Shown here: positions 11,196 to 64,000 of the stretch, in pieces | Position numbering within the stretch: position 1 is the stretch's first letter | Layout: each line of letters begins with the position of its first letter | Assembly (NCBI RefSeq): GCF_026210795.1 | Contig: NC_089434.1 | Coordinates: 1,798,001 to 1,862,000, forward strand | Length of the DNA stretch: 64,000 nucleotides | Direction of reading: 5' to 3' | Source: Rhizophagus irregularis | Taxonomy: Eukaryota | The notes under the pieces: generated by a model | The model's input: only the letters and a program-made list of their open reading frames with translations | What the model was told of the DNA's origin: nothing | Databases searched by the model: none | Translations under genes and position numbers: made by a program

Positions 11196-11758
11196 TAGGG
11201 TTGGATTAGTCCGGTCCGGTCCGGTCCCAAAAAGACCGGTCTTTCAACCTGGACCGGACTGGACCGGGACCGGACCAATTTAAACTTAAGAAATTTGTCC
11301 CTATGATTTTAAGCTTCTAAATTACGCAACGTTTTTTATTAAACAGTTAATAAACGTTGCGAAACGTTTTTTAACATGTAATTTAACAAATGAAAAAACG
11401 TTTCGCAACGTTTTTTATTAAAACAGTTAAAGAGCGTTGCGAAACGTTTTTTAACATGCAATTTAACAATAAAAAACGTTTCGCAACGTTTTTTTATTAA
11501 AACAGTCAAAAAACATTGCGAAACGTTTTTTGACATATAATTTAACAAATAAAAAACGTTTCGCAACGTTTTTTTAATTATTTTAACAAAAAACGTTGCG
11601 AAAACGTTTTTTATTAAGTAATTTAATAAAATAAAACGATTTCTCACGTTTTTTAATTAATTTAATGAGTCATTTTTATTGGATATTAATCATATAGATC
11701 GGTCCCCGGTCCCAAGACCGACGCAGGACCGGTCTTTGCTAGGACCGATCCAACCCTA
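11196..11758. mobile_element. hAT-superfamily MITE (563 bp)
   Basis: TIR TAGGGTTGGAT...ATCCAACCCTA. Perfect 8-bp TSD GTGATAAG at 11188-11195 and 11759-11766. GGACC/GGTCC subterminal repeats and an internal array of AAACGTTGCGAAACGTTT units. Confidence 0.92.
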
Positions 11759-12053: not shown

Positions 12054-14355
12054 TTAAAATCCATCTAAAAAAAAAATGCATATAAATAAACAACAATTAG
12101 TAATTAAAATATTATTATTTATAAAATATTAATATTAAGAAACTAACCATCAGGAATCTCAAATTCATCTTGTTCTTCCGAATGAAGGTTTGGATTATTA
12201 TGTATTTCATCATCATCTATAAAAATATAAAAAAGTACTTATTTAATTAAAATATTGCAAAATTAAAAATTTATAACAAATATTCTACTTACCAATACAA
12301 GGTCCTTTCACATGTTGTATTGTTTCTTTTTTATAATTATAATTATTTTGAATTTCTATATTTTTTAAATAAAACAAATAAAATTTTATTGAATAAATAT
12401 TGCTTAAACAAGAAATTAAGATTTAAATTTATTTTACATACCATTCTTGGAATTTATTTTTAACGTTTTAAATATTTTAGACAAACTTTTACTGCTGGCT
12501 ATAATTGAGATAAATTTGTATATTATTTCAAAAATTTTGAATATATAAATAAATTACTACCTTTAAAAATACTATTCATTTTTGATGTTTTATTAATCTT
12601 CTGATCGTTTGAATTATTAAAATCTTCAACTAAAAAACGAAAATCTGTTTAATAAATAATTCATCAAATGAAATTTTAATAAATACTTACTATTATCAGG
12701 AATACTAAAGTCATATGTTTTACTATGAAATGCTATTTCAAAATGGTTAAAAAATTATTATAATAGTTAAAAAATAGTAATAAAAAATATTAACCTTCTT
12801 GTCCTTTTATAAACATTAAATTAAAAAAGAAATTAGTAATGTCATATCTTAATCAATAAACAAAAAAATTTTATAAACAATACCTTCTATTGCATTCTTT
12901 GGTTCAGGTAAATTTTCAAATTGATGAATTTTGCTTGTAAATAATCTGCTACTACTCATATAATTTGTATTAGTTTTTGTTTCAAAATTACTTTTTGCTT
13001 TTGATTGAAATAATTCATTTGGCATATTTTGATATGATAAATGAATTTCTCCTATTTTATTCAGAAGGGATTCAATATCAAGTCTTTTTAATGGATCAGC
13101 ATCCCAACATTGTACCATTAAACTTTTATATTCTAAAGGAATATCTGACATAATTTTTGGTCTCATACCATTAATTATATCCATTGCAAGATTATAATCA
13201 TCATGCTTATAATCAATAAATGGTGAATATCCAGATGAAATTTCCCACATAAGTATTGCAACACTATAAATATCAGATTTAAAAGTATATCCTTTTCCAT
13301 TAATAACTTCTGGTGCTATATAGGGAAGATTTCCATATATACTTTTTGACGATTTATCAGCAGGTCCACAAAATCCAAGATCACTAATATACCATCTATC
13401 ATTAAATTGTGAAAATAATATATTTCCAGAGTGCAAATCTCTATGAATTGCCTTCTCATCATGAATCCAATATAGTGCATTAGTTATTTCAAAAGTAATT
13501 TTAATTCTTTCTTTCCATGTAAGTCGTTCATTATTTTGTTGTAAATATTTTCTTAAATCCATATCCATTTTCATCATTACAAGCATATAATTCCCATTTG
13601 ATGGAGTTTGTGTCATTCCATAACATCGGACAATTTCTGTACATTCATTATTCATAGTTAAATGTGATTTAGCCTGTAAATATAAAATTTTTTATTGTAA
13701 AACAAACAAATGGCTAATTTATGAATACATTTAGAATACAAACCTCTTCAAACCAACTTTGATTTGCACTTTCAACATTTTCTAATTTTTTGAGTACTAC
13801 ACCTGCTACAAAGTTTTGTGTTCCAGGTCTTTCAATTTTTTTCAATAGTTGTTTTTTAGAATCCCATTCATCATAATTTCCACCAATCCAATCTGCAGTA
13901 TAAATTTCGGAGAATCCACCTTTTGTAAGATATTTAATATTTTTTAAATTATTATATGGAATCCATTCAACTATTGTATTTGGCATAAGTGATTCCATTT
14001 GACATTTCTGTATTAAATTATCAATATTATCATTTCCAGATGTCCAATGTGAAAATTCTTCTTTTAAATAATTACGAATACAATATTCACAATATAATGT
14101 AGCTAAGCATTTTTGATTGCAATTTTCACAAATTCTTTTTGTTCCTGTATTTTGAAGAATTTTATCTCGGTCGTAAGCTTTAGTTATATGTTTTATTGCT
14201 TCATCTTTTTCATCATCTGTAAGAAGTTTATCAGCAAGAATTGTTTGTTTTTGAAATTCATGTCGTTTGTGAGTATCAGTGTGAATATTATAATTAATTA
14301 ACGAATATGCTCTTTGAACTGTTGCACTAACTAATTCATATCGAATGGTAGACAT
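12054..14355 (-). CDS. Tyrosine-kinase-like protein kinase, copy 2 (complete, multi-exon)
   Basis: ATG at 14355; exons 14355-13744 and 13673 onward, then short 3' exons ending ...EFEIPDDGF-TAA at 12056-12054. All catalytic motifs are present. Confidence 0.9.
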
Positions 14356-14451
14356 AATGCAATTTAATTAAAAAAGTTTAAAAAGAAAATTTTTATTGGT
14401 ATTAAAAAAAAAAAATAAGTAAATGAACTGGGAAAGGAATTTTTGACGTGT

Positions 14452-18692: not shown

Positions 18693-20978
18693 TTAAAATC
18701 CATCTAAAAAAAATGCATATAAATAAACAACAATTAGTAATTAAAATATTATTATTTATACAAATATTAAGAAACTAACCATCAGGAATCTCAAATTCAT
18801 CTTGTTCTTCCGAATGAAGGTTTGGATTATTATGTATTTCATCATCGTCTATAAAAATATAAAAAAAGTACTTATTTAATTAAAATATTGCAAATTAAAA
18901 ATTTATAACAAATATTCTACTTACCAATAGCTGGTCCTTTCACTTGTTGTATTGTTTCTTTTTTATAATTATTTTGAATTTCTACATTTTTTAAATAAAA
19001 CAAATAAATTTTATTAAATAAATATTGAAATTAAAATTTGGAATCATTTTGCTTACCATCGTTTGAATTTATTTGTAGCTTATTAAATACTTCAAATAAC
19101 CCTTTACTATCATCATCTAAAATTGAAATAAATTTGCATTATTATTATCTAAAAAAAATTTTATATAAACAAATTACCTTTAAAAATACTATTCATTTTT
19201 GATGTTTTATTAATCTTTTGATCGTTTGAATTATTAAAATCTTCGACTAAAAAACGAAAATTTGGTTAATAAATATTTCATCAAATGAAATTTTAATAAA
19301 TACTTACTATTATCAGGAATATTAAAGTCATATGTTTTACTATGAAATGCTATTTAAAATGGTTAAAAAATTATTATAATAGTTAATAATGAAAATAGCA
19401 ATAAAAAATATTAACCTTCTTGTCCTTCTATAAACATTTAAATTAAAAAAAGAAATTAGTAATAATTTCATATCTTAATCAATAAAAAAAAAATCTTATA
19501 AGCAATACCTTCTGTTGCATTCTTTGGTTCAGGTAAATTTTCAAATTGATGAATTTTGCTTGTAAATAATCTGATGCTTGTATAATTTGTGCTAGTTTTT
19601 ATTTCAAAATTATTCACTGCTTTTGACTGGAAAAATTCATTTGGCATATTTTGATATGATAGATGAATTTCTCTTATTTTTTCCTGAAGAGATTCAATAT
19701 CAGGTCTTTTTAATGGATCAGAATCCCAACATTGTACCATTAAATTTTTATATTCTAAAGGAATATGTGACATAATTTCTGGTCTCATACCATTAATTAT
19801 ATCCATTGCAAGATTATAATCATCATGCTTATAATTAATAAATGGTGGTTGTCCAGATGAAATTTCCCACATAAGTATTGCAACACTATAAATATCAGAT
19901 TTAAAAGTACATCCTTTTCCATTAATAACTTCTGGTGCTATATAGGGAAGATTTCCATATATACATTTTGATGATTTATCAGCAGGTCCACAAAATCCAA
20001 GATCACTAATAAACCATCTATCATTAAATTGTGAATATAATATATTTCCAGAGTGCAAATCTCTATGAATTGCCTTCTCTTCATGAATAAAATATAGTGC
20101 ATTAGTAATTTCAAAAGTAATTTTAATTCTTTCTTTCCATGTAAGTCGTTCATCATTTTGTTGTAAATATTTTCTTAAATCCATATCCATTTTCAACATT
20201 ACAAGCAAGTAATTTCCACTTGATATATCTTGTGTTAAACCATAACATCGGACAATTTCTGACCATTTATTATTTATAGTTAAATGTGATTTAGCCTGTA
20301 AATATAAAAACTTTTATTGTAAAACAAAAATTGGCTAATTTTATAAATACAATTTAGAATATATACCTCTTCAAACCAACTTTGATTTGCACTTTCAACA
20401 TTTTCTAATTTTTTGAGTACTACCCTTATTATTAGGTTTTGTATTCCAGGTCTTTTAACTCTTTTTAATTGTTGATTTTTAGAATCCCATTCATCATAAT
20501 ATCCATCGATCCAACCTGCAGTATAAATTTCGGAAAATCCACCTTTTGTAAGATATTTAATATTTTTTAAATTATTATATGGAATCCATTCAACTATAGT
20601 ATTTGGCATAATTGATTCTATTTGACATTTCTGTATTAAATTATCAATATCATCATTTCCAGATGTCCAATGTGAAAATTTTCCTTTTAAATAATTTCGA
20701 ATACAATATTCACAATATAATGTAGCTAAACATTCTTGATTGCAATTTTCACAAATTCTTTTTGTTCCCGTATTTTCAAGAATTTTATTTCGGTCGTAAG
20801 CTTTAGTTATATCTTTTATTGCTTCAGTTTTTTCATCATCTGTAAGAAGTTTATCAGCAAGAATTGTTTGTTTTTTAAATTCATGTCGTTTGTGAATATC
20901 AGTGTGAATATTATAATCAATTAACGAATATGCTCTATGAGTTGTTGCATTAACTAATTCATATCGAATGGTAGACAT
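18693..20978 (-). CDS. Tyrosine-kinase-like protein kinase, copy 3 (complete, multi-exon)
   Basis: ATG at 20978; exon 1 ends at 20367 and exon 2 starts at 20295. Same 3' microexon series, TAA at 18695-18693. Confidence 0.9.
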
Positions 20979-22299
20979 AATGCAATTTAATTACAAACTT
21001 TAAAAAGAAAAATTTTTTTATTAGTATATAAAAAAAATAAGTATATGAACTGGAAAGGAATTTTTGACAACGAAATTTAAGTTTCAAAAAATTCCTGAAT
21101 AGTGTAACTATAAATTCGAATTTTTAGTATGATCAGAATAATGTCATGTGACAATTACACAATTAAAGTTCAAAGAACGAAATAAACTATTTTTAGATAT
21201 GCTTGTTGATCATCCCTATAAATAATTATTTTTTTTTTAAAAAAAAACTAAAAATAGAAGATAACGTGAATACTAAAGTAGGAAGTTACCGGATTGTGAT
21301 GAAAAATTTAAAAATAACATTGACAGTAGTAGTGATTATTGCATTAGTGATTATACATGGAAAAATTTCTTGTAAAAAAGTTCTAAAATTAGTAAATAAA
21401 ATAAAAATAAATTATATTATATGAAGCAGAATAAATGAATACTTTCATAATAATTGCATAATAAAACTTTCATATGTTTACGTTTCATTAATAATGATTT
21501 ATTAATAATTGTTTATTAACTCACTAATAGATTACTTCGTTTATTTTTGCATGCCGGACTCCGTAAAATTAAATTTAAACGTTTGTCAGCAACTGTTTGA
21601 CCAATCCAATTTACTTTCAAAATATTTATTTATAAAATAAAAATTAATAATTTTAACTTTATTTACGAAATATTTTAATAACTTTACAATGTAATAAGTA
21701 TTTTTATATATATTAAATTATCAATATTTTTAAAATACTTTTTACTTTTTAATTGAAACCAGGTAAATAGTATAGCTATTTGCTTGGAATTAGTTTTTTT
21801 CGAAAATAAATGGTTCCTGTACAGTAAATAACATAAATTTAATTTTCGCAAAATTTGATCACAAAATAATAATTATATTGGGTAAAAAAATTCATTTTAA
21901 CCCAGATTTGAAAATAACAAAAATAGTGAAAAAATAATACTTTTTATATTCAGTAAGTTATGAAATGATCTGTTATACTTATAGTCGGTTAAAAAATTTG
22001 ATCGCTTCTTATAAAATATGTAAAGAATATAACGTATACAAGAAATATTATATTAATTATAAAAATAATATTATGCGCATCGTACGTATCTTATTTGAAT
22101 GAGATAAAGTCTAATATTTTACATAAAATAGTATTTATATAAAAATTATCAATCGTAAAAAAGATTTTATTTCGATTAAATTAAAAATCATATAAACCAT
22201 TTTTTATATTATTTTTCCACAGATACACGTTGTTTTATAATGTGATCTAGACTAATTTTATTTGGTAAATTTCTGTTGTTATAATTATTGTAAAATTAT

Positions 22300-27365: not shown

Positions 27366-28684
27366 CAGATGGTGATCAAAAGTATACGGACATTTTAATT
27401 TGCCAAAATTATGCCGATCATCACGTGATGACGTAATATAAACAATACGTCATTTAACGCCTTATATCATAATAAAAACCTCCCCAATGTTTTTTTTTTA
27501 GTAAACATTCACCAAATATGAAGCCACTCACCCCAAAAACCCGATATGCGATTATTTATGGTTATAATTGTGGACAATCGGGCCGTTTAATTGCAGAACA
27601 CTTGGGGTGTAGTAAAACTGCTGTTTATGATGTACTTAAACATTTTCGTGAAACTGGCTCTTTCACACCAAAAAAAAAATCAGGTCGCCCTCCACTCTTT
27701 GACTCACCAGCACGACAAGAACTCAAAGCTTTTGTTAAAGAAAATGGTGAAAATCGTCGACTTTGTTCAAAAAAGCTTGCAACTGTTTGGACAGCTCGTA
27801 AAAAGCAACCTATTTCTGTGTGTACCATACGCCGAAACCTCAAAAAGGTTGGACTTAGTGCCTGTATTCCCCGTCATAAACCTGCAATGACAGAAGCACA
27901 TCGTCAGGCTCGTCTTGAATGGGCTCTTGCACACAGAGATTGGACAACAAGAAAATGGAGAAGAGTGCTTTTTTCAGATGAAAGCACTTTTACACAATTT
28001 CAGAAAGGTCGTCAGGGAAGGGTTTGGCGTGAACCAGGAGAAGAATTGAATCCTGATTGTATTGCAGTTACCGTTAAACACAGTCCTAGCAGAATGTTTT
28101 GGGGTTGTTTCTCCTGGCGTGGGCTTGGACCAATTGTTCCGTTAAAAGGCTCAGTTACAGGTCAAACTCATGCTAAAATTATTCAAAACTATGTTGTACC
28201 TACTTTGGATGAGCATTTTCCACAGGGTAATGGAATTTTTCAAGAAGACAATGCTCCACCACATCGTTCAAAAGTCGCTATGGCCACCCGTGAAGATGCC
28301 AAAATTGTGGTGCTTCAATGGCCAGCACAAAGCCCCGATTTGAACCCCATAGAGAACATGTGGGCAGAAATGAAAGCAATGGTGCATCGACGTGACCCAC
28401 CACCATCTAATATCAAAGTACTTGAGAAATATGTTAAAGATGCGTGGGATGATATTCCTCCAGAATATTATAAAAAATTAATTGATAGCATGCCACAGAG
28501 AATTGAGGCAGTTATTGCTGCAAATGGATATAGTATTAATTATTAATATATAATTTTTTTTTACATAAAATTAATAAAGGACAATCAGATTAATATATTT
28601 ACTTAATAAATTTTATTTTTATTATATTATTTTATATGAAATTTTTATTTTAAAAAATGTCCGCATACTTTTGATCACCATCTG
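27366..28684 (+). mobile_element. Tc1/mariner DNA transposon, apparently intact
   Basis: 31-bp TIR CAGATGGTGATCAAAAGTAT(A/G)CGGACATTTT with one mismatch; TA on both sides (27364-65 and 28685-86). Confidence 0.95.
27518..28546 (+). CDS. Tc1 transposase (HTH + DD34E)
   Basis: Motifs KSGRPP, VLFSDES, FQEDNAPPH, WPAQSPDLNPIENMW; 34 residues between the second D and the E. Uninterrupted 342-aa ORF. Confidence 0.95.
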   Translation: MKPLTPKTRYAIIYGYNCGQSGRLIAEHLGCSKTAVYDVLKHFRETGSFTPKKKSGRPPLFDSPARQELKAFVKENGENRRLCSKKLATVWTARKKQPISVCTIRRNLKKVGLSACIPRHKPAMTEAHRQARLEWALAHRDWTTRKWRRVLFSDESTFTQFQKGRQGRVWREPGEELNPDCIAVTVKHSPSRMFWGCFSWRGLGPIVPLKGSVTGQTHAKIIQNYVVPTLDEHFPQGNGIFQEDNAPPHRSKVAMATREDAKIVVLQWPAQSPDLNPIENMWAEMKAMVHRRDPPPSNIKVLEKYVKDAWDDIPPEYYKKLIDSMPQRIEAVIAANGYSINY

Positions 28685-30347
28685 TATTTAATCGAATACA
28701 AGAAGTTAAAACTCGTCCACGACAAAGGTGGAGTTGAGGTTAAAATAATTCGTTATTTTGCAGTGTATTTAGCAGAGTATTTAGCAATTTTCAATGATTT
28801 TTTATTAGCTTTTTCATTATTAGGAAAAAAAATAAGAAAAGTAATTTAAAGAAATTAAAATTCAAGATGTTTATAGGACTTAAATTCGCATTTTTTCATT
28901 TTGTATAGAGATTGTAATTTAATTTAGATACTGTAACAAATATTAACGAATTTAAAAAATATATATTTTTACATTTAAAACATTTAAAGGAATTGTACAA
29001 TCAATAACTTATCTCCTAAATAAATGTTAACACTTGTTATTGACATTATTCTAAAAGTCACTTCTTACGGCAGTTGAAATAGAGCGATAAAACTAAAGAT
29101 GAAAGCAAAACTATGAGTTATTAAACTTCTTATCCACGGTGTTAATTTCATTGTTACCGATGAATTTATGAAATTCACTTAGAAAAATGTCTCGTATAAT
29201 TTATATTATTTTAGAATTTAGTAAATATGCGAATAAATAAATAAATACGTAAAGCAAGTTTAAATATAAAAGGATGTCAAATCCAAGTACTACATTTTTT
29301 TAAATAAATTCCTTTTTTTTATTTAGATTAGTCTGAGAGGCAAAAGTACCTTATTGTAAAATATATGATACGGGTCAATTTAGCACCGCGTGGTAGTTCA
29401 AGAACGATACATTTGCGTCTGAGAGTTAAAGTAGTCTATTATCAACTTGCGTATTATTTATTTATACAGTATATTAACAATTCGCGAGATTTACTATAAA
29501 TTTATTTTATTATTACAATATAGTGAGTGAGCTTTATACTATAATTATAAACACTGATTTGTCATCCAAAATTTTTTTTGGCCTCATTTTATATTTTTAT
29601 ATGCAAAGAAAAAAATTCTTTTTTTATTTTCCATTATTGTACAGTTACTACAGTACAAATGATGTCTTCGCCTTCTTTCTGTTTCTTTCATGTTAATTTG
29701 TACTTTCCATCATTAGTATCTTGCTTCTATGCCAAAATATTTAATAGTTAGCCAATACTTAAAGATATTTATTTTCGCTAGTATCTCAAATAAGCAAAAT
29801 GATAAAGGTAAATGCATTAATTACATTATTTTATGCATTTACTCTGATAAAGTACTTCTATAATATTAAACGGACTATTCCGTAATACTTATGGTAAATT
29901 CTCAAAATTCCTTGAGAATCAAGAAATATTTTCCGTACCGTCAACAAAAAGTTCAAACCTCTGATAACGCATAATTCAGAATAAATAAAATATGTACGTT
30001 CAAAATTTCATCATAGTATATCTTACTATTTATTATAAAGAAAAGTCAAAATGGAAAAATCAAGTTTTTAACTATTGCATGAGTTTCACTTTATTAATAA
30101 ATAAAATAAATTAATTAATGACAAAGTAACATAATAAAATTATAATATTTATTTATAGCTATGATTAACAATTAAACATGTTTAAAAATATTTTATTTTG
30201 TCTATTTTTAAAATTTTTTGTGTAATTGTAATTGTCATATGACATTCAGATCATACTAAAATTTGAATCTATAGTTACACCATTAATTTCGTTTTTCAAT
30301 TTATTTTTAACAATAAAAAAATTTTTTCTTTTTAATTAAATTACATT

Positions 30348-32648
30348 ATGTCTACTATTCGATATGAATTAGTTTATGCAACAACTAGTAGATCATATTC
30401 GTTAGTTGATTATAATATTTACACTGACATACACAAACAGTATGAATTTCGAAAACAATTTATTCTTGCTGATAAACTTCTTACAGATGATGAAAAAACT
30501 TTTGCAATAAAATATATAACTAAATCTTACGACAGAAATAAAATTCTTCAAAATACGGGAACAAAAAGAATTTGTGAAAATTGCAATAAAAAATGTTTAG
30601 CTACATCATATTGTGAATATTGTATTCGAAATTATTTAAAAGGAAAATTTTCACATTGGACATCTGGAAATGATGATATTGATAATTTAATACAGAAATG
30701 TCAAATAGAATCAATTATGCCAAATACTATAGTTGAATGGATTCCATATAGTAATTTACAAAATATTAAATATCTTACAAAAGGTGGATTTTCCGAAATT
30801 TATACTGCAGATTGGATTGGTGGAGGATATGATGAATGGGATTCTAAAAAACAACAATTAAGAAGATTTGGAACTACAGAAATAGTACTTAAAAAATTAG
30901 AAAATATTGAAAGTGCAAATCAAAGTTGGTTTGAAGAGGTTTGTATTCTAAATTGTTTATTATATTAAATAATTTTGTATTGACAATAAAATTTTTAAAT
31001 TCTTATAGGCTAAATCACATTTAACTATAAATAATAAATGGGCAGAAATTGTCCGATGTTACGGTTTAACACAAGATACATCAAATGGAAATTACATGCT
31101 TGTAATGAAGAAAATGGATATGGATTTAAGAAAATATTTACAACAAAATAATGAACGACTCACATGGAAAGAAAGAATTAGAATTACTTTTGAAATAACT
31201 ATGGCACTATATTTTATTCATTTTGAGAAGGCAATTCATAGAGATTTGCACTCCGGAAATATACTATTTTCACAATATAGTGATAGATGGTTTATTAGTG
31301 ATCTTGGATTTTGTGGACCTGCTGATAAATCATCAAAAAGTATATATGGAAATCTTCCTTACATAGCACCTGAAGTTATTAATGGAAAAGGATATACTTT
31401 TAAATCTGATATTTATAGTGTTGCAATACTTATGTGGGAAATTTCATCTGGATATTCACCATTTATTGATTATAATCATGATGATTATAATCTTGCAATG
31501 GATATAATTAATGGTATGAGACCGGAAATTATGTCATATATTCCTTTAGAATATAAAAATTTAATGGTACAATGTTGGGATGCTGATCCATTAAAAAGAC
31601 CTGATGTTCTAACTCTTTGTAATAAAATAAGAGAAATTCATCTATCATATCAGAATATGCCAGATGAACTTTTCCAGTCAAAAGGAGTAAATAATTTTGA
31701 AATAAAAACTAGTACAAATTATATAAGCAGCAGATTATTTACGAGCAAAGTTCATCAATTTGAAAATTTACCCGAACCAAAAAATGCAACAGAAGGTATT
31801 ATTTATTAAGTTTTTTGTTTATTGATTAAGATATGATGACGTTACTAATTTTTTTTTTTTGAATTTAAATGATTGTACTCGTTATAGAAGAACAAGAAGG
31901 TTAGCTTTTTTATTGTTATTTTATTAACTATTATAATAATTTATAACCTATTTTTCTTATTTTTTAAATAGCATTTCATAGTAAAACATATGATTTTAAT
32001 ATTCCTGATAATAGTAAGTATTTATTGAGATTTTCATTTGATGAAATATTTATTAATCAAATTTTCGTTTTTTAGTTGAAGATTTTAATAATTCAAACGA
32101 TCAGAAGATTAATAAAACATCAAAAATAAATAGTATTTTTAAAGGTAATTTATTTATATATTCAAATTTTTAAAATAATGATACAAATTTATCTCAATTT
32201 TAGGTGATAGTAAAAGGTTATCTGAAGAATTTAAAAGTTTACAAATAAGTTCAAATAATGGTAAGTAATATTATTCTAAATTTTAATCGTTTAATTAAGC
32301 AATATTTATTATAATCTTATTTATTTATTTAAAAATTCAGACATTCAAAATGATTATAAAAAAGAAACAATGCAACAAATGAGAGGATCAGTTAATGGTA
32401 AGTAAAGTAATTTGCTATAAATTTTCATTTTATTTTTGCAATGTTTAAATTAAAAATTTTGTCCTTTTATAGACGACGACGAAATACATAATAATCCAAA
32501 CCTTCATTCAGAAGATCAAGACGAATTTGAGATTCCCGATGGTTAGTTTCTTAATATTAATATTGTAATAAATAATAATTTAATTGCTAATTTCTATAAT
32601 TTCTATTATTTAAATTTATTTATATATATATTTTTAGATGGATTTTAA
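30348..32648 (+). CDS. Tyrosine-kinase-like protein kinase, copy 4 (complete, inverted relative to copies 1-3)
   Basis: Exons 30348-30938, 31009-31795, 31888-31899, 31972-32013, 32076-32144, three more short exons, and 32638-32648. Ends NNPNLHSEDQDEFEIPDDGF*. Confidence 0.92.
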
Positions 32649-52687: not shown

Positions 52688-53787
52688 AATTAGTTTCAAC
52701 TTTTTTTTTCCTTTTAAATAATTGTTAATCAAATAAAATTTGTTTAAGTTTTGTAATTTATTAGTATAATTTTCTGATTTACTTGAATAAAATGAATAAA
52801 ATAAGAAATTTTGAATTTAAATAAATAAAATATACTTTTAATATATAATGCTTTTAGATTTACATTATCTATTCTTCAATCTTATATTTGATTCGCCATA
52901 ATGAGACGTGGTATTTTTATAACTTTAACTTCAATAGATGAAAAAGTTATTGGCATTTTACTGTTTGAAGCTTTTTGAGAATAACTCCCTATTCTATCAA
53001 TACTAGAAACATGAATTTACTGCAATTTGATGCATTTCATTATGGTGATTCTAATGAGCTTTACTTTATCTTTTTATGATCATGATAAGTTATTATGATT
53101 TAACTTCTTTGAAAAAGGTAAATGTATATATATCATATAATATATTATACTGTATCAAAACTGTTGAAACAATTTCAGCAGGTTTTAGCAGTTTTAGCAG
53201 TTTCAGCATTTCAGATGATTTTGCAAACCTATTTTCAGCAGTTTTATATATACCATTCTGCTAAAACTCTTTAATTTTGGTAAGCAATTTTACTTTATCA
53301 CCACTATACATGCCACCCAAATTATTTTGGGTTGCCATAATTATAAGTAAAATCCTATAAATTAAATGAATTATGGAATTCCAAATTATAATCATGACAT
53401 CCCAAAATAATTTGGGCAACATATATAATCATCACTATTATAACTATTATTATCATCTTTACTATCATTTTTACTACCACTATTTTCATTACTTTTATCA
53501 TTTTATTATTGTTTCTTTCTTTTTTTTTACTTTTTTTATCAATTGACTTTTTTTCATCAGATTTTTCTAACTTTTTGAATCTTATTATTATTTGATTTAT
53601 AATTACTTGATTTTAGTATTTGGTTTATAAAAGCAAATCTGATAAATTATAGTTTTATAACAAAATGTTTTAAGAAATATTGTATCTTAAAATTTATTTT
53701 TAAGATTTCTTACAAAACAGAAGGAATGAGAAAATCATATATCTTTATTTGAATTTTCCAGTACATCTAAACAACAAGTTCATTTTA

Positions 53788-54228
53788 AGTAGTATGAAAA
53801 TGCCGGTTCTGGCTCACCCCCACCATATAATCTAAAATACTACCACTTTATATAATCTAATTACCACCATCATATAACTTAATTACCATCATATAATCCA
53901 CCTACCACTTTTACTATAATTTAACTACCACTTTATATAATCTAGTTACCACCATCATATAATTTTAATTACCACCATATAATCCACCTACCACTTTTCA
54001 TATAATCTAGTTACCATCATATAGTTTTATTACCACCATACAACTCTATTACCACCATACAATCTGAAAAAATTAACCGAACAAGAAATAGGATTTCAAA
54101 GCCAACGGAGCCAAAAAAGATAAGGAAATATTAACCCATCCAGGAAACCAGCCATGGGGTCAATAGAGCGGAATAGCAAGGCAAGTAATTACCCTTATAC
54201 CGAGAAAAAATGTAATTGAATAAAAGGT
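53788..54228 (+). repeat. Left TIR (441 bp) with internal TACCAC(C)ATATAAT-type tandem units
   Basis: Reverse complement of 63108-63549 with one substitution and one 1-nt indel by manual comparison. Confidence 0.95.
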
Positions 54229-54250
54229 TTACATATAAAAGACTTACAAG

Positions 54251-54920
54251 ATGTCACAATACAGACCATCACTAAGACGTATACTAGGTCAGTTTGAACT
54301 CAATATAGAAGAATGGGTAAAGGAAATAATGTGGTATTTAGATATAGTATATTTAAAAGCTTTAGATTCCGAATTTAGCAAAGAAAGTATGTTAGTATCT
54401 GGATTAGAAGAGCTAGTAGAAATATTTGATGAGATGTTAGAAGGTGATGATATATGGATACATCCATCACTTTTATCACGAATAAGATATTCTATTCTAC
54501 CAGATGAGATGGCAATATACGAAAGATTTTTAGATATCATTAAGAACTTCTCAGAGGATAAAGAATTAGCATATGCATTATTAGACTTAGTAGAAATATT
54601 ATCGAAAAAGCCTCTGGACATTCAACATTATAGATTACAATATACAAAGAATATTCACGAATCCTAATGATGAATATAGAAATGAATTCAGCATCTACCA
54701 TATTAAAGGAGATGAAGATATGAACGAAGACACAGATGAAGACATAGATGAAGTAGAGCAGAATGAATTCAATGAATACTATTAGAATCTTGCACCGACC
54801 ACCGAGAGTCAGCTGGATAGACTAAAAAATGAGTTGGCTATAACTCTATGTGACGAATGTCTTATGCCAACAAGCCAAGTTGGGAATGTGATTGCTGGAT
54901 TTTACAAATAGAGGTTTCTA
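54251..54920 (+). CDS. Acidic protein of unknown function (element gene; probably frameshifted near 54660)
   Basis: 138-aa ORF directly after the TIR promoter-like motif; an acidic continuation with a CDEC motif follows in another frame. Confidence 0.5.
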
Positions 54921-54940
54921 GTTCCCAGTGAAACCATTTT

Positions 54941-55734
54941 TTACCTCTCACAATCTGGAATAGGTACATCACAAATAAAATCCCCAAAATCATTCGGATT
55001 AGAAAATAACTTCTGTAAGAACTTATAAATCATATCAGCAGCCAATTCAGTCTTAGTGCCAAATATATTAACCTTACCAGATTTAGGCCAGATATGTACC
55101 CGAATCTTTGATGTGAAGACTATAACAATTTTAGAATGAATATCACCCGCATCATTCTTAATATACTTTATCGGAAAGGGGAGAATCTCACGAATACCAT
55201 CTACAGATTCTAAAGCATATGCTAAGGTAGAAAGATGAATAAACTTATTACTCCCGATATTAATCACAAATTTGTAATTACACAGGAGAGCCTTATTTCC
55301 ACCCACAAGTTCTACAGAAGAAAACTCAGGTAGGGAACATTCAGAAAGGTAACGTAAGAAGATAGCAACAGGATCAAAAGATCCGAAAACTTGTATACTA
55401 CCAGATCTAGGAAAATAACGAATGGTATGTACAGAATCAGCTAAAATGATAACAAACTCAATGCAAGCATTAAAAGTGCTACCATCCCCAGTACGTCACC
55501 GTCTATTTAATGGATTGTCAGGTGTACTTCTTCTGCATCGTCTCTCACCTTTTGGTTTAGATAAGTACTGTTCATAACCCTCAAAAGCTTTATGAATAAA
55601 GTTGCTATTAATGGCAATAACATCCTTAAGTAGGTTCAAGCTTATGTCCAAGCACGGTGTAATCAGCCCCCTTCAACATTGATCTTAAATTCAGTAACAG
55701 TAAGAGATGGAGTAAGTTCACTAAAAGTAAGCAT
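54941..55734 (-). pseudogene. Viral-type TATA-binding-protein-like gene (asfarvirus B263R-like), disrupted
   Basis: Reconstructed VIAINSNFIHKAFEGYEQY..TGDGSTFNACIEF..YFPRSGSIQVFG..CNYKFVIN..IRVHIWPKSGKVNIFGTKTELAADMIYKFLQKLF..ICDVPIPD. Two frameshifts at about 55630-55670 and a TGA near 55497. Confidence 0.75.
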
Positions 55735-55838
55735 GTCTGGTTTTTTCTATTGATAGAAAAGAAATGTTCAAATTATTTTATCCTAAGAAAAAATCTAATT
55801 AAATAAAACTTCTTCATCAATATCTCATATGAGATACC

Positions 55839-56351
55839 ATGACAAACAATAGCTTACCTTTCGAACTTTTAGAAAAGATATTCAAAACTTCATATGAAGG
55901 TACTTACTCCCGTTGGTATTATCTTTGCAATTATGCATTAGTGTGTCGAAAATGGGCTGTAGTAGCAAACTCTCTCCTATGGGGTGAAACAGACCTTTAT
56001 AACCGCTATAATATTAAGGAGTTCCAAATGTACAAACATCTCACAAAACCAGGGACAGTATGTGGAAAATATATCAGAAAGCTTAATATGGATGAGGTAA
56101 AATTATGGCCCATTTGTATTGTAAAAATGCTACAAGCTTGTCCCAATATCCAGGAACTTAGCATAATAGATTATCAATACTATGGTGGAAAAGGTGACGT
56201 TAGAGATTTGCTAAGTGAAATTCTGCATATATTACCAAAACTTCGAATGATAGATATCAGATATAGTCGATATTTTAAAAATAAAAATGCCATTGAAAAA
56301 CTCATAGAAACCCGTAAAGACCTAGAAATCAGAGTAACATGGCAAATGTAA
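55839..56351 (+). CDS. F-box protein with a short LRR-like C-terminus
   Basis: LPFELLEKIF..LVCRKW F-box pattern; ACPNIQELSI and LPKLRMIDI repeats. Confidence 0.75.
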   Translation: MTNNSLPFELLEKIFKTSYEGTYSRWYYLCNYALVCRKWAVVANSLLWGETDLYNRYNIKEFQMYKHLTKPGTVCGKYIRKLNMDEVKLWPICIVKMLQACPNIQELSIIDYQYYGGKGDVRDLLSEILHILPKLRMIDIRYSRYFKNKNAIEKLIETRKDLEIRVTWQM

Positions 56352-56367
56352 TATTTGTAAAGGCTAA

Positions 56368-56535
56368 TCACTGCCAAAAAATTTGGGCACTGCCCTGTTC
56401 ACCGCCCGTCACTGCCAAAAAAAATTTGGGCACTACCCCTGTTACTGCCCGTCACTGCCGAAAAAATTTGGGCACTACCCCTGTTACTGCCCGTCACTGC
56501 TGAAAAATTTGGGCACGCCCGTCACGCCCGCCACC
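56368..56535. repeat. GC-rich tandem repeat of about 40 bp (about 4 units) between convergent genes
   Basis: Unit TCACTGCC(A)nTTTGGGCACTACCCCTGTTACTGCCCG. Confidence 0.9.
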
Positions 56536-56639
56536 GCCCATCATCGCTGCAGAAGTTTGGGAAACACATGGATTTTTCCTAGCAAGATGACGCTTTAACT
56601 TAGAGGGAAAGTCAAAACTTGCTCCACATAGATGACAGG

Positions 56640-58803
56640 TTAATCTTCCTCGAGAGTGTGAATTTTTTTTAAGTCGATAGTATCCATCTGCAAGGAAGTC
56701 ACGTTAGTTTTCCGTTTATGTAGAGAAATTGGAATGGTAATTTTTTTACGTGATGATAGAGGGATGGTCAGTTGCCGATTTTGGAAATCTAGAATGACAT
56801 TATCACGATCAATCCAAGGTACACCCAGTAATAAAAAGTCCTTATCACTCTTAACAACCATGAAGTCATCTTCGATTTTTTTAGAGTTCTTCCCATCATA
56901 CACAAGAATACCAAGACCATATACTGTCCCAATAGTATCAGATTTTGTCGCAACACCACTAAGGTCAGGAGCATTACTTCTATCAACGTCAAGATTTAGG
57001 CGCTTTTACAATATTGTTAGATATCAGAGAACTATCAGAACCAGTATCGAAAATTGTCGTAGGAATAACCAAAGATTTTTCACTCTCAGGCGACTTCTTA
57101 CTTTGGTCTTAATATGACTACATCACTAGCAGACTTGCGGTTAACAATTCCAATACCTGCTATAGAAGACCATAAGTCATTATTACATATAACATCATCA
57201 TTTTTACGGATTAAATTTGCAGCCATACTATTAGTTACAACCGAAATCATAGGATGAAGGATAGATGATGAAAAAGGTCCTTAACATTATCCCAAACTTT
57301 TTCACGTGTTTTTATTGAGGGTTCTCCCTTTAAGCTGACTGAGTACTGGTTCTTTATAATTAATGAATTCAGCATTCAGAGCATTGTAAGCAGATATAAC
57401 AGTCTCTTTTGGTACAGCATTAACGAAGGATTGAACCAGAAGCTTTAAGAGTTGTATAAAAACCTCAAAGATAATACGCTGCCTTTCAAGTTGTGATTTT
57501 TTCTTATCAGTAGGCTTTTTATCTATACGTTTCCTTTCTGTAGGCTTTTTTTTAATCATAGCAGGCATGTCCAGAGTCTGATGAATCGCTATCAGAGGAT
57601 TCAGAGGAGTCAGAGGCGTCAGAAGAGTTAGAGGAATCAGAGGAGTCATGTGCATAATTTGTTTTCCTCTTTCCCTTCTTAGATTTTGGACAGGAACTCT
57701 TAGTATGACCAGATTTTCCACAACTTGAGCATTTCTTTGATTTCTTTGGTTTGCGTGTACCTGAACTTATACCAAATACCTGATTACCACGGTAAATATG
57801 GTCAGATGGTAAATTTTTATTAAGTTCTGTATCAATAAATATTTCAAGATCACTAAGGGTTACTTTACTTATATCGATATCTCTTGGAAGACCTAATTTA
57901 TATGCTAAAGCAAGTAATCTCTGAAATGATGTATCATTTTGAGGACTTGAAAATGGACTAGAAGATGGTACTGGTACTGCAGATGATCTAGCCGTAGTCA
58001 TAGGAATTTTAGAATTTATAAGATTCTCAATATCCGCTAAAGTTGGACCCTCGATATGTAACTATAGGAGTAGGTGGCATATCTGTCCTGTATTTCTCAA
58101 CTTCTTCCAATTTATTCAGAATAGATGCAACTGAATTTTCTAAACCAATACGTCGCGCATCCAACTTATTTTCACTGGAAAGACCATTTAAGAACTGTTG
58201 CCGTACTAATTCATTCTGATTTACCTCTGGAAGAGTTGGATATGCAAGTCTAACCATTCTTCGTAATTTAGAATAGAATCGGCTTACAGTATCACTACCC
58301 TGAACAATAGCATTAAATGCAAGTTTAGACTTTTCAGATGTTATAGTAGGGAAGTAATGCTTAAAACGATATATTAATTGTCCAATACGTATTCCAGGAG
58401 CCACAATTGTACCTCCATTATTAGCATTAGGATTATTAACAGCTATATCAGTAGGACGACCCTCGACTACTGACCAATCTTCATCCCATACAGTATGATC
58501 AGGTATAAAATTAGCACCAGTAATAGTATTATCTGCAGCTGCTTGTCCATGTAATACACCAGCCCTTCCACGAAATTGATTCGCCGCTACAGCCTGTATA
58601 GCGCCATTATTCAAAGCATTAAAAGCAGCAAGATTGGCCACACCAGTATTATCCAGAAGATTTACACATTCCCAATTTTTTCCTTTGATATGTGTTTCAT
58701 ACCAATCTCTAGCATCATCTTCAAGTAAAGTCTCAAAGATCCCATGAATCCTAACACGAGTTCTAGCATTAGCAGCAGGATCAAGTCCAGCAGACTCACA
58801 CCA
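56640..58803 (-). pseudogene. Ty3/gypsy-like Gag + CCHC zinc knuckle + retropepsin protease, 5'-truncated and frameshifted
   Basis: LEDDARDWY; QGSDTVSRFYSKL..RQQFLNGL (capsid-like); CSSCGKSGHTKSSC; IFDTGSDSSLIS (DTG at 57048-57040); FLLLGVPW. No RT, integrase or LTR is visible. Confidence 0.8.
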
Positions 58804-58805
58804 AT

Positions 58806-61800
58806 GCGGAGGCCAATAAATTCTGCTATAACTGCTCCATTACATTCATCCTTAAATTTTCCTGGGATTTTCATATTTATGTCAGTCTTATCACCTAATG
58901 CTTTTCGTACAGGATGATCTTTAGGATAATCACTGAAGTCAAATTGGTCTGCCATATCTATGAGGTCTGCATTAATATCCTCAGTTTGGATTTGTACAAG
59001 AAGTGAGTCTGTGTCTGTATAACATAACTGGATTTTTTCACCATATCGTACTTTAAGAGTATCATAGTAGAATTGATACATACAGAGCTTCGAGAGGTCA
59101 AGCACACTCATACCCACATATGTTGGACGGTTAAGCATTACCTCCACTTTTCGTCGGTGAATTGCAACAAGATTTTCTGAGAATATTTTACGACCCTTGA
59201 ATGCAGGATCTGAGGTAAGCTTTTTATATTTCTTGGGATGGGTTTGGGGTTGTACTACTGAGACACGTACACGTTTCCTGAGATTTTCCATAGTTTTACC
59301 AAATACACTATTATTCATGAGTTTATAGAAGTCCTTCTCAAAATCATTTTTAGCCTTAGCACGTTCGGCGGTGTTAAATTCTATATATGGTTTCATCCAT
59401 GGAGCCTGCTCGAATTTTATAGCTTCATAGACCTTCTTAATTACTAAGCCCTGGCTAACATAATACTGGAGATTTCTATAATGAACTACATATTCATCCT
59501 TATCAAATAGGTTAGGGATGAGCTTATCCGTGGGTGTATATCGTTGTCCTGAACGTGCTATTATTTCCTGCTGCTTTTTACTAAGCCATTCCTTCTTAAC
59601 CTTCATTCGTTCTGGTGCAAGGGGGTAATCTGTGTGTTGTGAATGGAGGGCTTGAGGGTACTCCAGTTTGACTTTAAGGATATATCCCTCAGAAGAATCA
59701 TCTGGTATTTCATTACTTTCTATTTGCCTTTGAATGTTAGATAACTCGTTTTCCTCCTTTATCCAGTGGAAGTTACCTGTAGGTAAGTATTGCAACATGG
59801 CCCATCCATATAGGTTATTTGCGTCTAAGTATAGAATAGATGACTTGGGCTTATCTGCGGTCCATTTACCTTCTCCCATACCTGGATTATTTGCACGAGC
59901 ACATCGTTTACTTACCATAGAGATTCCACCACGTAATCCTTGTTCTACCATCATGTACATGTCCTGGTCAGTTATAAGATCCAATCTTTGCCCTGTCATT
60001 AAGAATAGTGCATCCCATGCGAAGCCTGGTGTTGAATAGTACCAAGAGAGGATCTAACCCATATTTTTTCAAGGCCATTTCTCGGAAATTCTGAAATATA
60101 TCGGCTAGTAGGAGGACGTCAGTTTTGAGATAAATGTCATGATAATCTTGCATTGTTTTACATCCTGCTTTTTCCCATACATACTGTGCATATTCGTATT
60201 CTTTATCACTAATGTGGGTTTCATTAAGTTTGCTATAAAATGCTCCTTTAGGTGGTAAACTAGTTTTCTCGAACTTTTTCCAGTCATCCATGTATTCATA
60301 CGGGTAGACACCTTTCTTAAGATAAATCTCGAGTAATTCAGGTGGTATTTGACTTCGTGTTATTTTAAAGTTTTCGGGATGTGCAAAGCATCTACCTGCA
60401 TCAATTCGCCATAAGTGTTGTGGATTACTACATTCTTGTGCTCTACATTTTTCTGCGCCTAGGTTGGATGCTAATTTGTCGAGACTTGATTTCATGAATT
60501 GTAAGCTGTCTATAAATCGGAGGAACCTAACTTGAATGCCATATACTTTTCCATGTTATAAGGGATAGGATCAATATCATCCTCACATTCCATTGCACCA
60601 ATTCCTTGCATAATTATATGTCCATCATATCCTGATAAATTGTGAAAGATTACTGGGATATGCATTTCACGAGGTTTTATGGATAAGTCAAGATTACATC
60701 TTCTATGTGCTGCACCTCGATACCTTCCTGTAATATGGCAGTGGTCTCTTACTTTATTTCCATCTAAGGGGTTACGACATATCCAGCAGTTTATTGCATT
60801 ATCATAACTTGCTTGCTCTTGGGTTGTTAACGGCATCATTTCCATTGGGTTTCTGAATTCATTACGGATTGCTTCAGCCTCATTTAGCATTTCGATTACA
60901 AATTTTTGTGCTGCATTTTCTCCTGTAAATATCTTCTGTGATTCACTTACACCATCATATCTTACCTTAATATACGAGTATGAGCAGGGGATTTGCTCTT
61001 GTACTTTCTTGGTTTTCTTATCTTTGTCTTCATCTGTGGGTGGTATGTCCATTACTAGGGCTTCAAAGTCTGCAACAAAGTAATATGGGACTTGCATGCG
61101 GCGTTTCCAGTTCTTGAATTCATATATATCATTTCCTTTCTTTACTGATGGCATTCGGTCTGCTTGTGGGGTTTTCTTTAATCCTCGACATATTGCTACA
61201 TGTTTGTCGTAGGTTTCTTTGTTGATGTGTAAAGTGGGAGATACACCATCGGCAGACTAATATTGCATGTTCATTTTTTGTACGTTTATTTACTAAACGG
61301 CTCATATTCTTAATCCAGCAATAGTGCTGCTTTTCCCCGTTACTGATAAGTACTAAATCTATTATTTTACGGCCCTCTGCATCATCCCTATCGGTAACAT
61401 ATATTGGACATAGGCGGTGGTCACGCCATTCACAGATGCAGAGGGCAATAGTTGAGTTCTGTCGCTCAAATCTTCTTAGAATTACCTCATCAGCATGTAC
61501 TCGAAATTCGATACCTTCAAAGTTTAACTCATTTACATACTCCTTATACTTGGAAATTCTTTCTGCATTCTTTTCTACTGGATGTAATGCTGCTAGGATT
61601 GCCCACTGGAAGCATTTGTCATCATCATTAGCTGGATTTACTACTCCCTTTTTCGTGGCAAGATCTTTTGGGAGTGGTATATGTCCTGCTCCTGTGGGTG
61701 GTTGGAATTGCGAGATTTCTATAAATATTTTTTCTACACGATAGAATTCCCAACCTGATCCGTAATTTACATAGTCTTCTACTTTCTGCATGATTCTTGC

Positions 61801-62388
61801 TAATGCAAAGTTAAATGTACCATTAATATCTGTTGATGGTAGGATTGGCATATTGCGAGTTTTAAATGGTATGTTATATCTGTAGATATACTCTACTCCA
61901 TCATCTTCACTAAAGTTACCATCTCCGAATAATCCCTCAAGGTAAGAATCTAAACGTCTTATTGTAGCAAATATTCCAATTCTTACTTTTATTGATCCCA
62001 ATCGATTTCTTTCATCCCGAAGAATATTCTGGATTGTTTGACTGTGTGCTGTAAGAAATGAAGCATAGTCATGCTCTCCAGGTGTTCCTATAGCAATATC
62101 AGCTGTAAAGTTTGAGTCTGTTAACTCCTTTCCTATACGTACCTGATCACGACGTTCAAAGACTACCTCATAATGTGGGTCTGGGTCAATTTGCATCATG
62201 CGGGTTATCTCTTCATTGGTTACCGCCGCTTGTGCTTCACGGATTTGGCGGATCTCATCCTCATATTCCTGCAATTTTGCATTTGAGCGGGGATATAGGA
62301 TGGATTTGACAGGTACCTGTTTGAGTTCAGCTAAAACTGATCGGACGACTTGTCTGTGTTGGGCACTTCTTGCTTGATGTGTTGACAT
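58806..62388 (-). pseudogene. polB: Protein-primed family B DNA polymerase (Polinton type), with three frameshifts and a truncated C-terminus
   Basis: GSGW..DKCFQWAILAALHP; VADFEA; VRDHCHITGRYRGAAHRRCNL; FHNLSGYD; KGVYPYEY; YLDANNLYGWAM; KLMNNSVFGKTMEN; YTDTDSL; GKFKDE..EFIGLR, then an abrupt junction. Confidence 0.93.
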
Positions 62389-62410
62389 CTTGTATACTTT
62401 TTAGATCCCT

Positions 62411-62433
62411 CTTTTATTCAATTACATTTTTTC
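62411..62433 (-). promoter_or_regulatory. Element-specific upstream motif GAAAAAATGTAATTGAATAAAAG before polB
   Basis: Exact copies lie at the inner end of both TIRs and a degenerate copy lies at about 55787-55808. Each is 22-40 nt before an ATG. Confidence 0.7.
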
Positions 62434-62525
62434 TGAAAATAAAATTAATTATTCGCCTACCCTATAAGGATAAAAAAAGATGAAGACGGGTTAATATCGC
62501 CTTCTAAAATTTATCTGGATATAAT

Positions 62526-63070
62526 CTATTCCTCGTCATCTGAGTCATCATCATCCGAGTCACCGAACGCATCCTCATCAGGAGTATCCCCATCCTTAAA
62601 TAACTCAAAATTGCGCATCATTCGGATGTATTCTCCCTTATTAGTTTCTTCCGATATAAAACTACAATGGAGAATAGCTTGTTCTATGACTACCATTTCT
62701 TCGAATCTGGTATACTTTTCTTGACTAATTTTAGTTGATTCATCGGAAAGTTTATCAAAATTTATACCACCATCTGCACAATCTCGCCAGAAAGCCCTTT
62801 CAGCTTTCTTACATATATTGCCACTGTTCGTATGTCTATCGACGCATGCGCGCAGCAAAATCTTTCGGCTCTCCAGATTGGATTAACTTCTAGAAGATGC
62901 GGTCCAAAATTGTTACTTGGAATGTATTCCAGGATATGGCCTACAAGTTTGGGGATTGTTAATACTGCGTGCGGGGTTTGACAGCTTTTTAGGATTTCCC
63001 TATTGATAGCCATAAGATCGGAGACTGTGCAGCCGAAGATTGATGCCAACTTTTCCGCGGTATATGCCAT
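62526..63070 (-). CDS. F-box-like protein with an acidic tail (two ORFs joined by a probable frameshift near 62860)
   Basis: VLTIPKLVGHILEYI..LLEVNPIW resembles an F-box; the overlapping downstream ORF ends in a D/E tract. Confidence 0.5.
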
Positions 63071-63107
63071 GTTATGTGCTATTTATCTGTATAGTTACTT
63101 GGTACCT

Positions 63108-63549
63108 ACCTTTTATTCAATTACATTTTTTCTCGGTATAAGGGTAATTGCTTGCCTTGCTATTCCGCTCTATTGACCCCATGGCTGGTTTCCTGGATGG
63201 GTTAATATTTCCTTATCTTTTTTGGCTCCGTTGGCTTTGAAATCCTATTTCTTGTTCGGTTAATTTTTTCAGATTGTATGGTGGTAATAGAGTTGTATGG
63301 TGGTAATAAAACTATATGATGGTAAGCTAGATTATATGAAAAGTGGTAGGTGGATTATATGGTGGTAATTAAAATTATATGATGGTGGTAACTAGATTAT
63401 ATAAAGTGGTAGTTAAATTATAGTAAAAGTGGTAGGTGGATTATATGATGGTAATTAAGTTATATGATGGTGGTAATTAGATTATATAAAGTGGTAGTAT
63501 TTTAGATTATATGGTGGGGGTGAGCCAGAACCGGCATTTTCATACTACT
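63108..63549 (-). repeat. Right TIR (442 bp)
   Basis: Reverse complement of 53788-54228. Confidence 0.95.
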
Positions 63550-64000
63550 TTTTATCCATGCATTGACTAGTACCCTTTATTTCAGTTGTAATCATAAAAA
63601 AGAAATAAAATCATTTAATATGGATTGCAATCTGTAGTGCCTAGTACACATGTTGAAATGTACTATACCATTAATTTTTATTTAAAATAAATTAATGTAA
63701 TTAATGTATAATTAGTTTATATATTTTTTTTTTTATTTTTTAAATTTTAAAGTTTATTAATTATAACACTTAAAACCATACAATATAGGTGTTACATATC
63801 ACGAAAATACAGACGACAGGTCAACTACCCCACAGTGCAATGAAGATGCATTAATAAATCTGATACAAATACACTTACGAACTAAAAAAAAATGAAATGC
63901 AGGAAAAAACAAAACAAAAAAAAAGAATCCTACATACAAAAATGAAAACAAAAAAACAAAATGAAAAAATAAGGAAACAGTCAGTAATGAAGCCATCCTA

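Follow-up and report, generated by a model that had tools for sequence, protein, structure and literature searches.

The described systems closest to the locus analyzed here are the TBP of African swine fever virus (ASFV), the Polintons (Mavericks), small helper-dependent linear elements, and the linear cytoplasmic elements pGKL1/2 of yeast. A TBP needs a polymerase and TFIIB, a typical Polinton is flanked by a TSD of 6 bp, and pGKL1/2 have a protein-primed DNA polymerase B (pPolB) together with TIRs. In ASFV, the role of pB263R in promoter binding and initiation is itself just proposed (PMC7163114), and B263R is described as an early gene with a proposed function at late promoters, while the ASFV early motif is described as related to ATNTGA (PMC7163114, PMC7458399). 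The same ATNTGA has been reported 20–40 nt before the start codons of yeast virus-like elements (PMC6211774), and AAAATTGA has been given as the early promoter that pacmanvirus has in common with its transpoviron (PMC11788076). Although no dsDNA virus is known to infect fungi, asfarvirus-like relics occur in Rhizophagus irregularis (PMC10640383), and Mavericks have been reported in Rhizophagus (PMC11952901). Three further studies concern Rhizophagus polintons or fungal giant viruses and, in their accessible text, not the TBP considered here (10.64898/2026.06.19.733378, PMC11296320, PMC12247965). Finally, the Figure 5 legend of Starrett et al. (2021; PMC8502044), on MELD viruses and related elements, lists TBP as well as Matrix/Capsid/NC/Pro, the Figure 6 legend of the corresponding preprint counts TBP and Fbox among host-protein homologs, and the name Rhizophagus MELD virus 6100 appears in 10.1101/2022.05.25.493380.

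We analyzed a 64,000-nucleotide stretch of the R. irregularis contig NC_089434.1 (hereafter the window), in which positions 54941–55734 of the minus strand hold a B263R-family TBP-like pseudogene, assigned by homology and fold. The initial annotation had reconstructed an ORF interrupted by two frameshifts and one TGA, and this is borne out by comparison with the intact protein P0002 and with the intact gene of metagenome locus L002: single-base frameshifts lie near 55667 and 55628, an in-frame TGA occupies 55496–55498, and the coding sequence is distributed across three minus-strand frames. The initial estimate was about 260 codons after repair, and P0002 has 263 aa. The 121-aa ORF from which the reconstruction started equals the stretch beginning at a GTG at residue 143 of 263, whereas the stop-to-stop frame is longer and, with 184 aa (54941–55495), forms the longest open piece. 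In BLASTN the window copy is 96.3% identical to the L002 gene over 794 nt with 2 gaps. A protein search with the 184-aa piece gave 56 proteins out of 82 candidates, and every organism-named match (12/12) comes from R. irregularis. The best match is P0002, which is 93% identical and has 56 cluster members, and an annotated R. irregularis protein (P0003) shows 100% identity to the window piece across the matched part. At the three places most contigs of four public runs have another sequence than the window, so the lesions are specific to the window copy. Intact copies do exist in the same element family.

The motifs on which the original reading was based (YFPRSGSIQVFG, IWPKSGKVNIFG, NSNFIH..GY, GDGSTFNACIE, NYKF, IHL, PFPI and CDVPIPD) are all present on the minus strand in the claimed order, and the likeness to ASFV proposed there holds as well, with the same order found in the ORF of locus L027 that bears the name pB263R (African swine fever virus). 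A viral-contig scan with the TBP returned 4 loci including this one, and the match between P0002 and ASFV pB263R has an E of 3e-30 with 78 of 256 residues identical (30%). No cellular TBP was found at E ≤ 10 in PDB sequence searches, which agrees with the contrast to eukaryotic TBP drawn in the initial annotation, and the PDB sequence matches include no solved structure of the B263R family. Pfam gives no match to PF00352 in P0002 at E ≤ 0.05, and the Pfam and PDB sequence searches by themselves do not recognize the protein. Matches to AdoMet_dc (E 0.02–0.4) were also obtained and are ruled out by the fold results as a local strand-pattern match.

The model of P0002 built with AlphaFold2 from an alignment of 30 intact homologs (pLDDT 85.1) is a TBP saddle, which the original reading had put forward as a structural expectation. 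The two TBP-like half-repeats that had been proposed align only weakly with each other (6/15 identical, E 0.002), and the predicted fold spans the whole saddle. In a Foldseek comparison of this model to viral structures, ranks 1–4 have E values from 3.5e-16 to 5e-13, and the one named structure in these four, at rank 2, is the B263R homolog of abalone asfa-like virus (E 8.7e-16, TM 0.72); other giant-virus TBPs come after, at E 3e-10 or weaker. TBPs also head the list in a PDB structure search, and VIA-align of the model to them gives Z 11.3–13.4 over about 172 residues and an identity of 15–19%; the alignment with Z 13.4 has an rmsd of 3.3 and 172–178 aligned residues. In an Atlas search, clusters of Nucleocytoviricota rank first, and the second cluster has PF00352 on 34% of its members. 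At the nine predicted DNA-face residues of pB263R, which together with the kinking positions we took from PMC5825884, P0002 is identical in 7 of 9, the exceptions being F221 (W) and N219 (H). For the DNA-kinking aromatics F90, F110 and F221 this means that P0002 has identical residues at F87 and F107 and a tryptophan, W215, as the third. The intact TBP is thus predicted to adopt a TBP saddle, and judged by its sequence the window gene is a copy of an asfarvirus B263R-family TBP gene.

B263R relatives also occur in contigs of large viruses: L001 and L026 both carry an NCLDV capsid gene, and by eye the gene order around the B263R relative in these two resembles that around B263R in L027. Together with L025 (2836 nt, 20% GC) they are asfarvirus-like contigs. 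In a tree of 40 rows (35 of 75 omitted, with no cellular or non-asfarviral outgroup) the element-type TBPs group together (99/99) on a long stem (0.92), separate from both the ASFV group and the L001/L026 group, and their clade has no strongly supported nesting inside named asfarviruses. On sequence grounds, then, the element TBPs are a deep, separate lineage within the B263R family, not adjacent to ASFV itself; as the tree has no outgroup, it supports family membership and not a donor or a direction of transfer. Deeper-branching TBP relatives lie on short soil-type contigs without known context (L015, L017, L021, L023; P0205, P0206, P0211, P0221), and these may be further element lineages or donor viruses.

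The initial annotation had placed the gene inside a transposon, and it does sit between long TIRs. The element spans 53788–63549 (9.76 kb), with TIRs of 443 bp that are 99.5% identical to each other: the left one (53788–54228, plus strand) starts with AGTAGT, and the right one (63108–63549, minus strand) ends with ACTACT. A TSD of 5 bp, TTTTA, is present at 53783–53787 and at 63550–63554, as read from the flank sequence and from a contig of public run X17 in which 53782 is joined straight to 63550 with a single TTTTA, that is, the empty-site allele. The GC content of the element is 36.6% vs. 26.5% in the left flank. In public run X16 the contig depth is approximately 1300–1700 inside the element vs. 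40–55 in the flank, a value that is not a copy number and indicates many copies of the element. The carrier is a multi-copy, Polinton-like mobile element of R. irregularis.

Next to the left TIR, ORF-left (54251–54931, plus strand, frameshifted) codes for a conserved helical protein of about 220 aa with a C-terminal Cys cluster; it has 98 matches, the organism-named ones among them being R. irregularis, and its structural model (pLDDT 75.5), which we examined for a TFIIB-like partner, gave no viral fold match at E ≤ 0.001. It is followed by the TBP pseudogene and, head to head with that, an intact F-box protein gene (55839–56351, plus strand; Pfam PF12937, E 1.5e-06). A frameshifted ORF for a retropepsin-like aspartic protease (56640–57600, minus strand) is 55–76% identical to a protein of the metagenome locus L009, which in turn matches gag-asp_proteas, Asp_protease_2 and RVP_2 with E 1.5e-4 to 5e-4. 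The frameshifted 3' part of a Gag-like gene with a CCHC zinc knuckle (57552–58740, minus strand) was assigned from the L009 match, where it corresponds to Gag residues 330–693, and from Pfam (Retrotrans_gag E 1.1e-4, zf-CCHC E 0.0036, both below curated cut-offs); its 5' part is deleted. By comparison with L009, a junction at 58741–58806 marks an internal deletion of about 2.4 kb that has taken the end of pPolB, the integrase and the start of Gag, with no integrase match anywhere in the window, and in other copies reads and contigs continue in pPolB sequence at 58807. The pPolB gene (58807–62388, minus strand) has several frameshifts and has lost its C-terminus, with Pfam matches to DNA_pol_B_2 (E 4.1e-08 and 5.6e-05) and Endonuclease_7 (E 2.7e-4). 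ORF-right (62526–63070, minus strand) is broken, has no Pfam match, and is probably variable between copies because contig depth is low over part of it in other runs. Double jelly-roll capsid, penton, A32-like ATPase and cysteine protease genes were not found among 13 window ORFs and 7 L009 ORFs, a set that includes no complete intact element, and the element genes found include no RNA polymerase or TFIIB gene. The window element is a non-autonomous derivative that decayed recently.

Several details of this organization can be recorded in their own right. Where the frames of Gag and protease overlap there is a run of 8–10 A (window 57545–57560, minus strand; L009 4455–4470; L006 3155–3170) that resembles a ribosomal frameshift site of retroviral gag-pro type, and a Gag-Pro module replacing jelly-roll capsids in a pPolB element is unusual in itself. 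A tandem repeat of about 44 bp, more GC-rich, lies between the converging F-box and protease genes (56361–56530) with a copy number that differs among contigs. In L009 the integrase and Gag ORFs begin back to back, 10 nt apart, around TAGTACTACT (2238–2249), which echoes the terminal AGTAGT/ACTACT.

The flanks of the element hold fragments of kinase, SDR, BACK and Tc1-type transposase genes. A protein kinase gene region is present in four dispersed copies of about 90% identity (50–1560, 12849–14367 and 19468–20990 on the minus strand, 30336–31809 on the plus strand), expanded kinase families being typical of R. irregularis. Elsewhere in the window are a Tc1/mariner-type transposase ORF of 356 aa (27476–28546, plus strand; DDE_3, HTH_Tnp_Tc3_2) and, where the GC content is higher (11309–11660), a tandem array whose units of roughly 80 bp each show inverted symmetry within themselves. 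A short high-copy repeat directly left of the element (53304–53540) has many loose ends in RNA and DNA runs.

The fuller gene order is seen in L009, which reads pPolB, integrase (opposite strand, rve E 3.3e-10), Gag, aspartic protease, F-box, TBP, ORF-left. Among 25 metagenome loci with a TBP relative, F-box or ORF-left adjoins the TBP gene in 19, with F-box in head-to-head orientation in 11; since 15 of the 19 are one close lineage, this corresponds to about 5 independent lineages. L025 and L026 group with viral proteins, and 4 loci have no recognized neighbor. The position of the TBP gene is fixed across element lineages at 55–70% identity. Seven intact TBP genes give dN/dS values of 0.22–0.55 in 21/21 pairs, with dS mostly near 1, and the 3' part of the window copy differs from L002 by 16 synonymous and 4 nonsynonymous changes. 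These comparisons argue that the TBP gene is under purifying selection and is standard cargo of the element family. Neither the integrase nor the protease nor the TIR end gave a match in viral contigs, and the search with pPolB returned two other pPolB contigs (41–45% identity) that are absent from the TBP scans.

Upstream of most element genes we find a putative early-type promoter motif. It precedes ORF-left at the TIR end (54204–54225, plus strand), is contained in the right TIR (63111–63132), and lies upstream of pPolB (62412–62433, minus strand); a putative core, ATTTGAACA, is located 39 nt upstream of the TBP start (55765–55773, minus strand), and a variant lies upstream of the F-box gene (55787–55808, plus strand). 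The 22-bp degenerate pattern has 4 mismatch-free matches in the window, all on the sense strand before element ORFs, a number to be read with the fact that the pattern was built from the matching sites themselves and that two of the four sites are TIR duplicates. A fifth match in the window, with 3 mismatches, is outside the element, and the number expected by chance is 0.23. Across genes from nine sources, a WTTGAA or ATNTGA core occurs 15–50 nt before the ATG in 14/22 and is absent in 8/22, compared to a shuffled mean of 2.6 (maximum 9 in 5000), 4/22 on the reverse strand and 15% of random host windows; the core was chosen post hoc from the sequences, and homologous genes among the 22 are non-independent samples. 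Of 5 occurrences of the longer form WWTTGAAYA across the entire element, 4 lie 35–52 nt before a sense ATG (two of the four in the duplicated TIR), and in L009 this form is not found before integrase, Gag or protease. What is kept across relatives is WTTGAA and not the TATA-like tail. Before the ORFs of the ASFV locus L027 the core pattern is found in 0/7, B263R itself included. In the published endogenous viral region of R. irregularis, exact-word counts were 58 vs. 34, and 29 vs. 18 and 24, for control words, and an exact-word search found no TIR match there. In L025, AAAAATTGAAT lies 38 nt before the TBP gene. By its sequence, the WTTGAA motif of the element resembles giant-virus early promoters.

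Transcripts of the element are rare. Out of 11 million reads each, three poly(A) RNA runs with the same species label place 140, 121 and 112 on a stretch of 11 kb, from both strands, counts that come without a control gene and of which part stem from the flank repeat; a fourth RNA run, of doubtful kind, has 56 reads. These low counts fit a near-silent family and separate none of the models discussed below, and they are explained equally well by ordinary transposon silencing.

It is also important to consider how much of this has been described before. The protein DAC81703.1 is a member of the 90% protein cluster of P0002, and its DAC prefix is presumably the third-party-annotation prefix used for the viruses of Starrett et al. 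The element is very probably identical with an element of that study, Rhizophagus MELD virus 6100. The initial annotation held that a TBP is outside the described Polinton gene set. The carrier is a non-canonical Polinton with a Gag-like protein and an aspartic protease, and the gene was probably described already (TBP in the Figure 5 legend, DAC81703.1). The accessible texts of Starrett et al. make no mention of an asfarviral origin or of a promoter motif for the element, and no paper on the B263R affinity of the element TBP or on the promoter motif was found in a literature search that mostly covered sources other than subscription journals. What appears to be new is that the element TBP is of asfarviral type and under selection, together with the promoter evidence that the element depends on a giant virus.

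Taken together, the gene and the promoter motif suggest that the element is likely transcribed with the machinery of a giant virus that infects the fungus. Our main reading, to which we assign a probability of roughly one half, is that the element likely depends on a co-infecting asfarvirus-like giant virus, that the RNA polymerase of this virus uses the intact TBP as an initiation factor, and that this TBP activates the late genes of the element. We favor such a helper-dependent parasite because neither polymerase nor TFIIB was found in the element, its TBP is of viral type, the early-type motif stands before replication and regulatory genes and is absent before structural genes, and R. irregularis carries an Asfarviridae-related endogenous region. 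The integrated element would be almost silent until a giant virus infects; the early machinery of the virus would then transcribe pPolB, TBP, F-box and both terminal ORFs from their WTTGAA promoters, after which the element TBP would join the polymerase and TFIIB of the helper and turn on the motif-less Gag, protease and integrase genes. Such a late-gene switch would parallel the proposal made for ASFV late promoters. The GC content of the element (36.6%) is close to the 36.58% given for the endogenous viral region (PMC10640383), a match that can be coincidence.

The same dependence on a giant virus could hold with the opposite effect of the TBP, namely as a decoy that competes for TFIIB, polymerase or late promoters and lowers virus yield, which would make the element an antiviral defense of the fungus. 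A helper supplies a TBP already, which may make another functional one superfluous; the element TBPs stand on a long stem (0.92) and have F221 changed to W; and PLVs have been described as antiviral in protists. The mostly kept DNA-facing residues, however, fit a working factor at least as well, and we consider the decoy unlikely. Comparably improbable is a nuclear, helper-independent element whose captured viral TBP binds the AT-rich upstream motif and recruits host RNA polymerase II. The motif does lie 25–50 nt before the ATG, and three window copies end in AATAAAAG, which is one mismatch from the TATA box consensus. The element is integrated in chromosomes and multi-copy, and Maverick elements are reported to be expanded in Glomerales (PMC11952901). 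Yet the core conserved among relatives is WTTGAA rather than the TATA-like tail, the TBP gene itself has the motif and would need its own product to start, the identity to cellular TBP is only 15–19%, and RNA is scarce in runs labeled as uninfected.

A non-transcriptional job, such as degradation of host proteins with the adjacent F-box protein, is much less probable still: the head-to-head arrangement in 11/25 loci and a preprint that reports promotion of Beclin1 degradation by ASFV B263R speak for it, but gene adjacency is weak evidence and conservation is centered on the predicted DNA-contact residues. That the TBP gene is a neutral passenger from a viral relic, as the window pseudogene and several truncated database relatives might suggest, is already largely refuted and has hardly any probability left, given dN/dS below 0.6 in 21/21 pairs with dS mostly near 1, a position fixed across lineages at 55–70% identity, and most contigs free of the window lesions.

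Extending the main reading from this gene to the biology of the fungi, we tentatively propose, as a possibility we lean somewhat against, that Glomerales harbor active integrated hyperparasites of asfarvirus-like giant viruses, which would combine pPolB replication, a retroviral-type Gag shell, use of viral early machinery and their own TBP redirecting or jamming late transcription. If true, these hyperparasites would indirectly indicate that giant viruses still infect mycorrhizal fungi, and they would be a fungal counterpart, for Asfuvirales, of the virophages. An element that is mobile, present in many copies and equipped with an asfarvirus-type TBP under selection and with giant-virus-like early promoters would be a sign of a helper virus that is still alive, and it would serve as a cheap marker that should light up in infected cultures. 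The element also provides a B263R-family protein from a small source that is not a pathogen, and for this family a function in late transcription has so far just been proposed. If the helper model is set aside, what remains is a gene re-assignment in an element that is probably already catalogued.

Compared to the known systems, the element is like the yeast cytoplasmic pGKL1/2 in being fungal and linear with ATNTGA-type cores, given for the yeast elements as 20–40 nt before start codons (PMC6211774), and unlike them in that pGKL1/2 encode their own RNA polymerase and are extrachromosomal, whereas the element has an integrase and no RNA polymerase. With virophages, helper-dependent PLVs and transpovirons (the pacmanvirus pltv; PMC11788076) it shares the form of a small linear TIR element; the genes of those systems bear promoter motifs of the helper, and the motif here is of early NCLDV type. 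It differs in that the available text of PMC11788076 reports no TBP for pltv, in its integration and retro-type structural genes, and in a helper dependence that here is inferred. Long TIRs with AGTAGT ends, pPolB, chromosomal insertion with a TSD and the rve integrase of the relative L009, deleted in the window copy, place it close to Polintons/Mavericks (Polintoviricetes), unlike which it has a TSD of 5 bp instead of 6 bp, a Gag-like protein and an aspartic protease where jelly-roll capsids, packaging ATPase and cysteine protease are expected, and carries TBP and F-box genes. In contrast to ASFV, the TBP is encoded by a 10–12 kb integrating element whose identified genes include neither RNA polymerase nor TFIIB, and relative to pB263R it is a separate deep branch with W at the F221 position, broken in the window copy. 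What it has in common with pB263R and the asfarviral TBPs is a length of 263 aa, the motif order, 30% identity, the predicted TBP saddle and 7 of 9 DNA-face residues.
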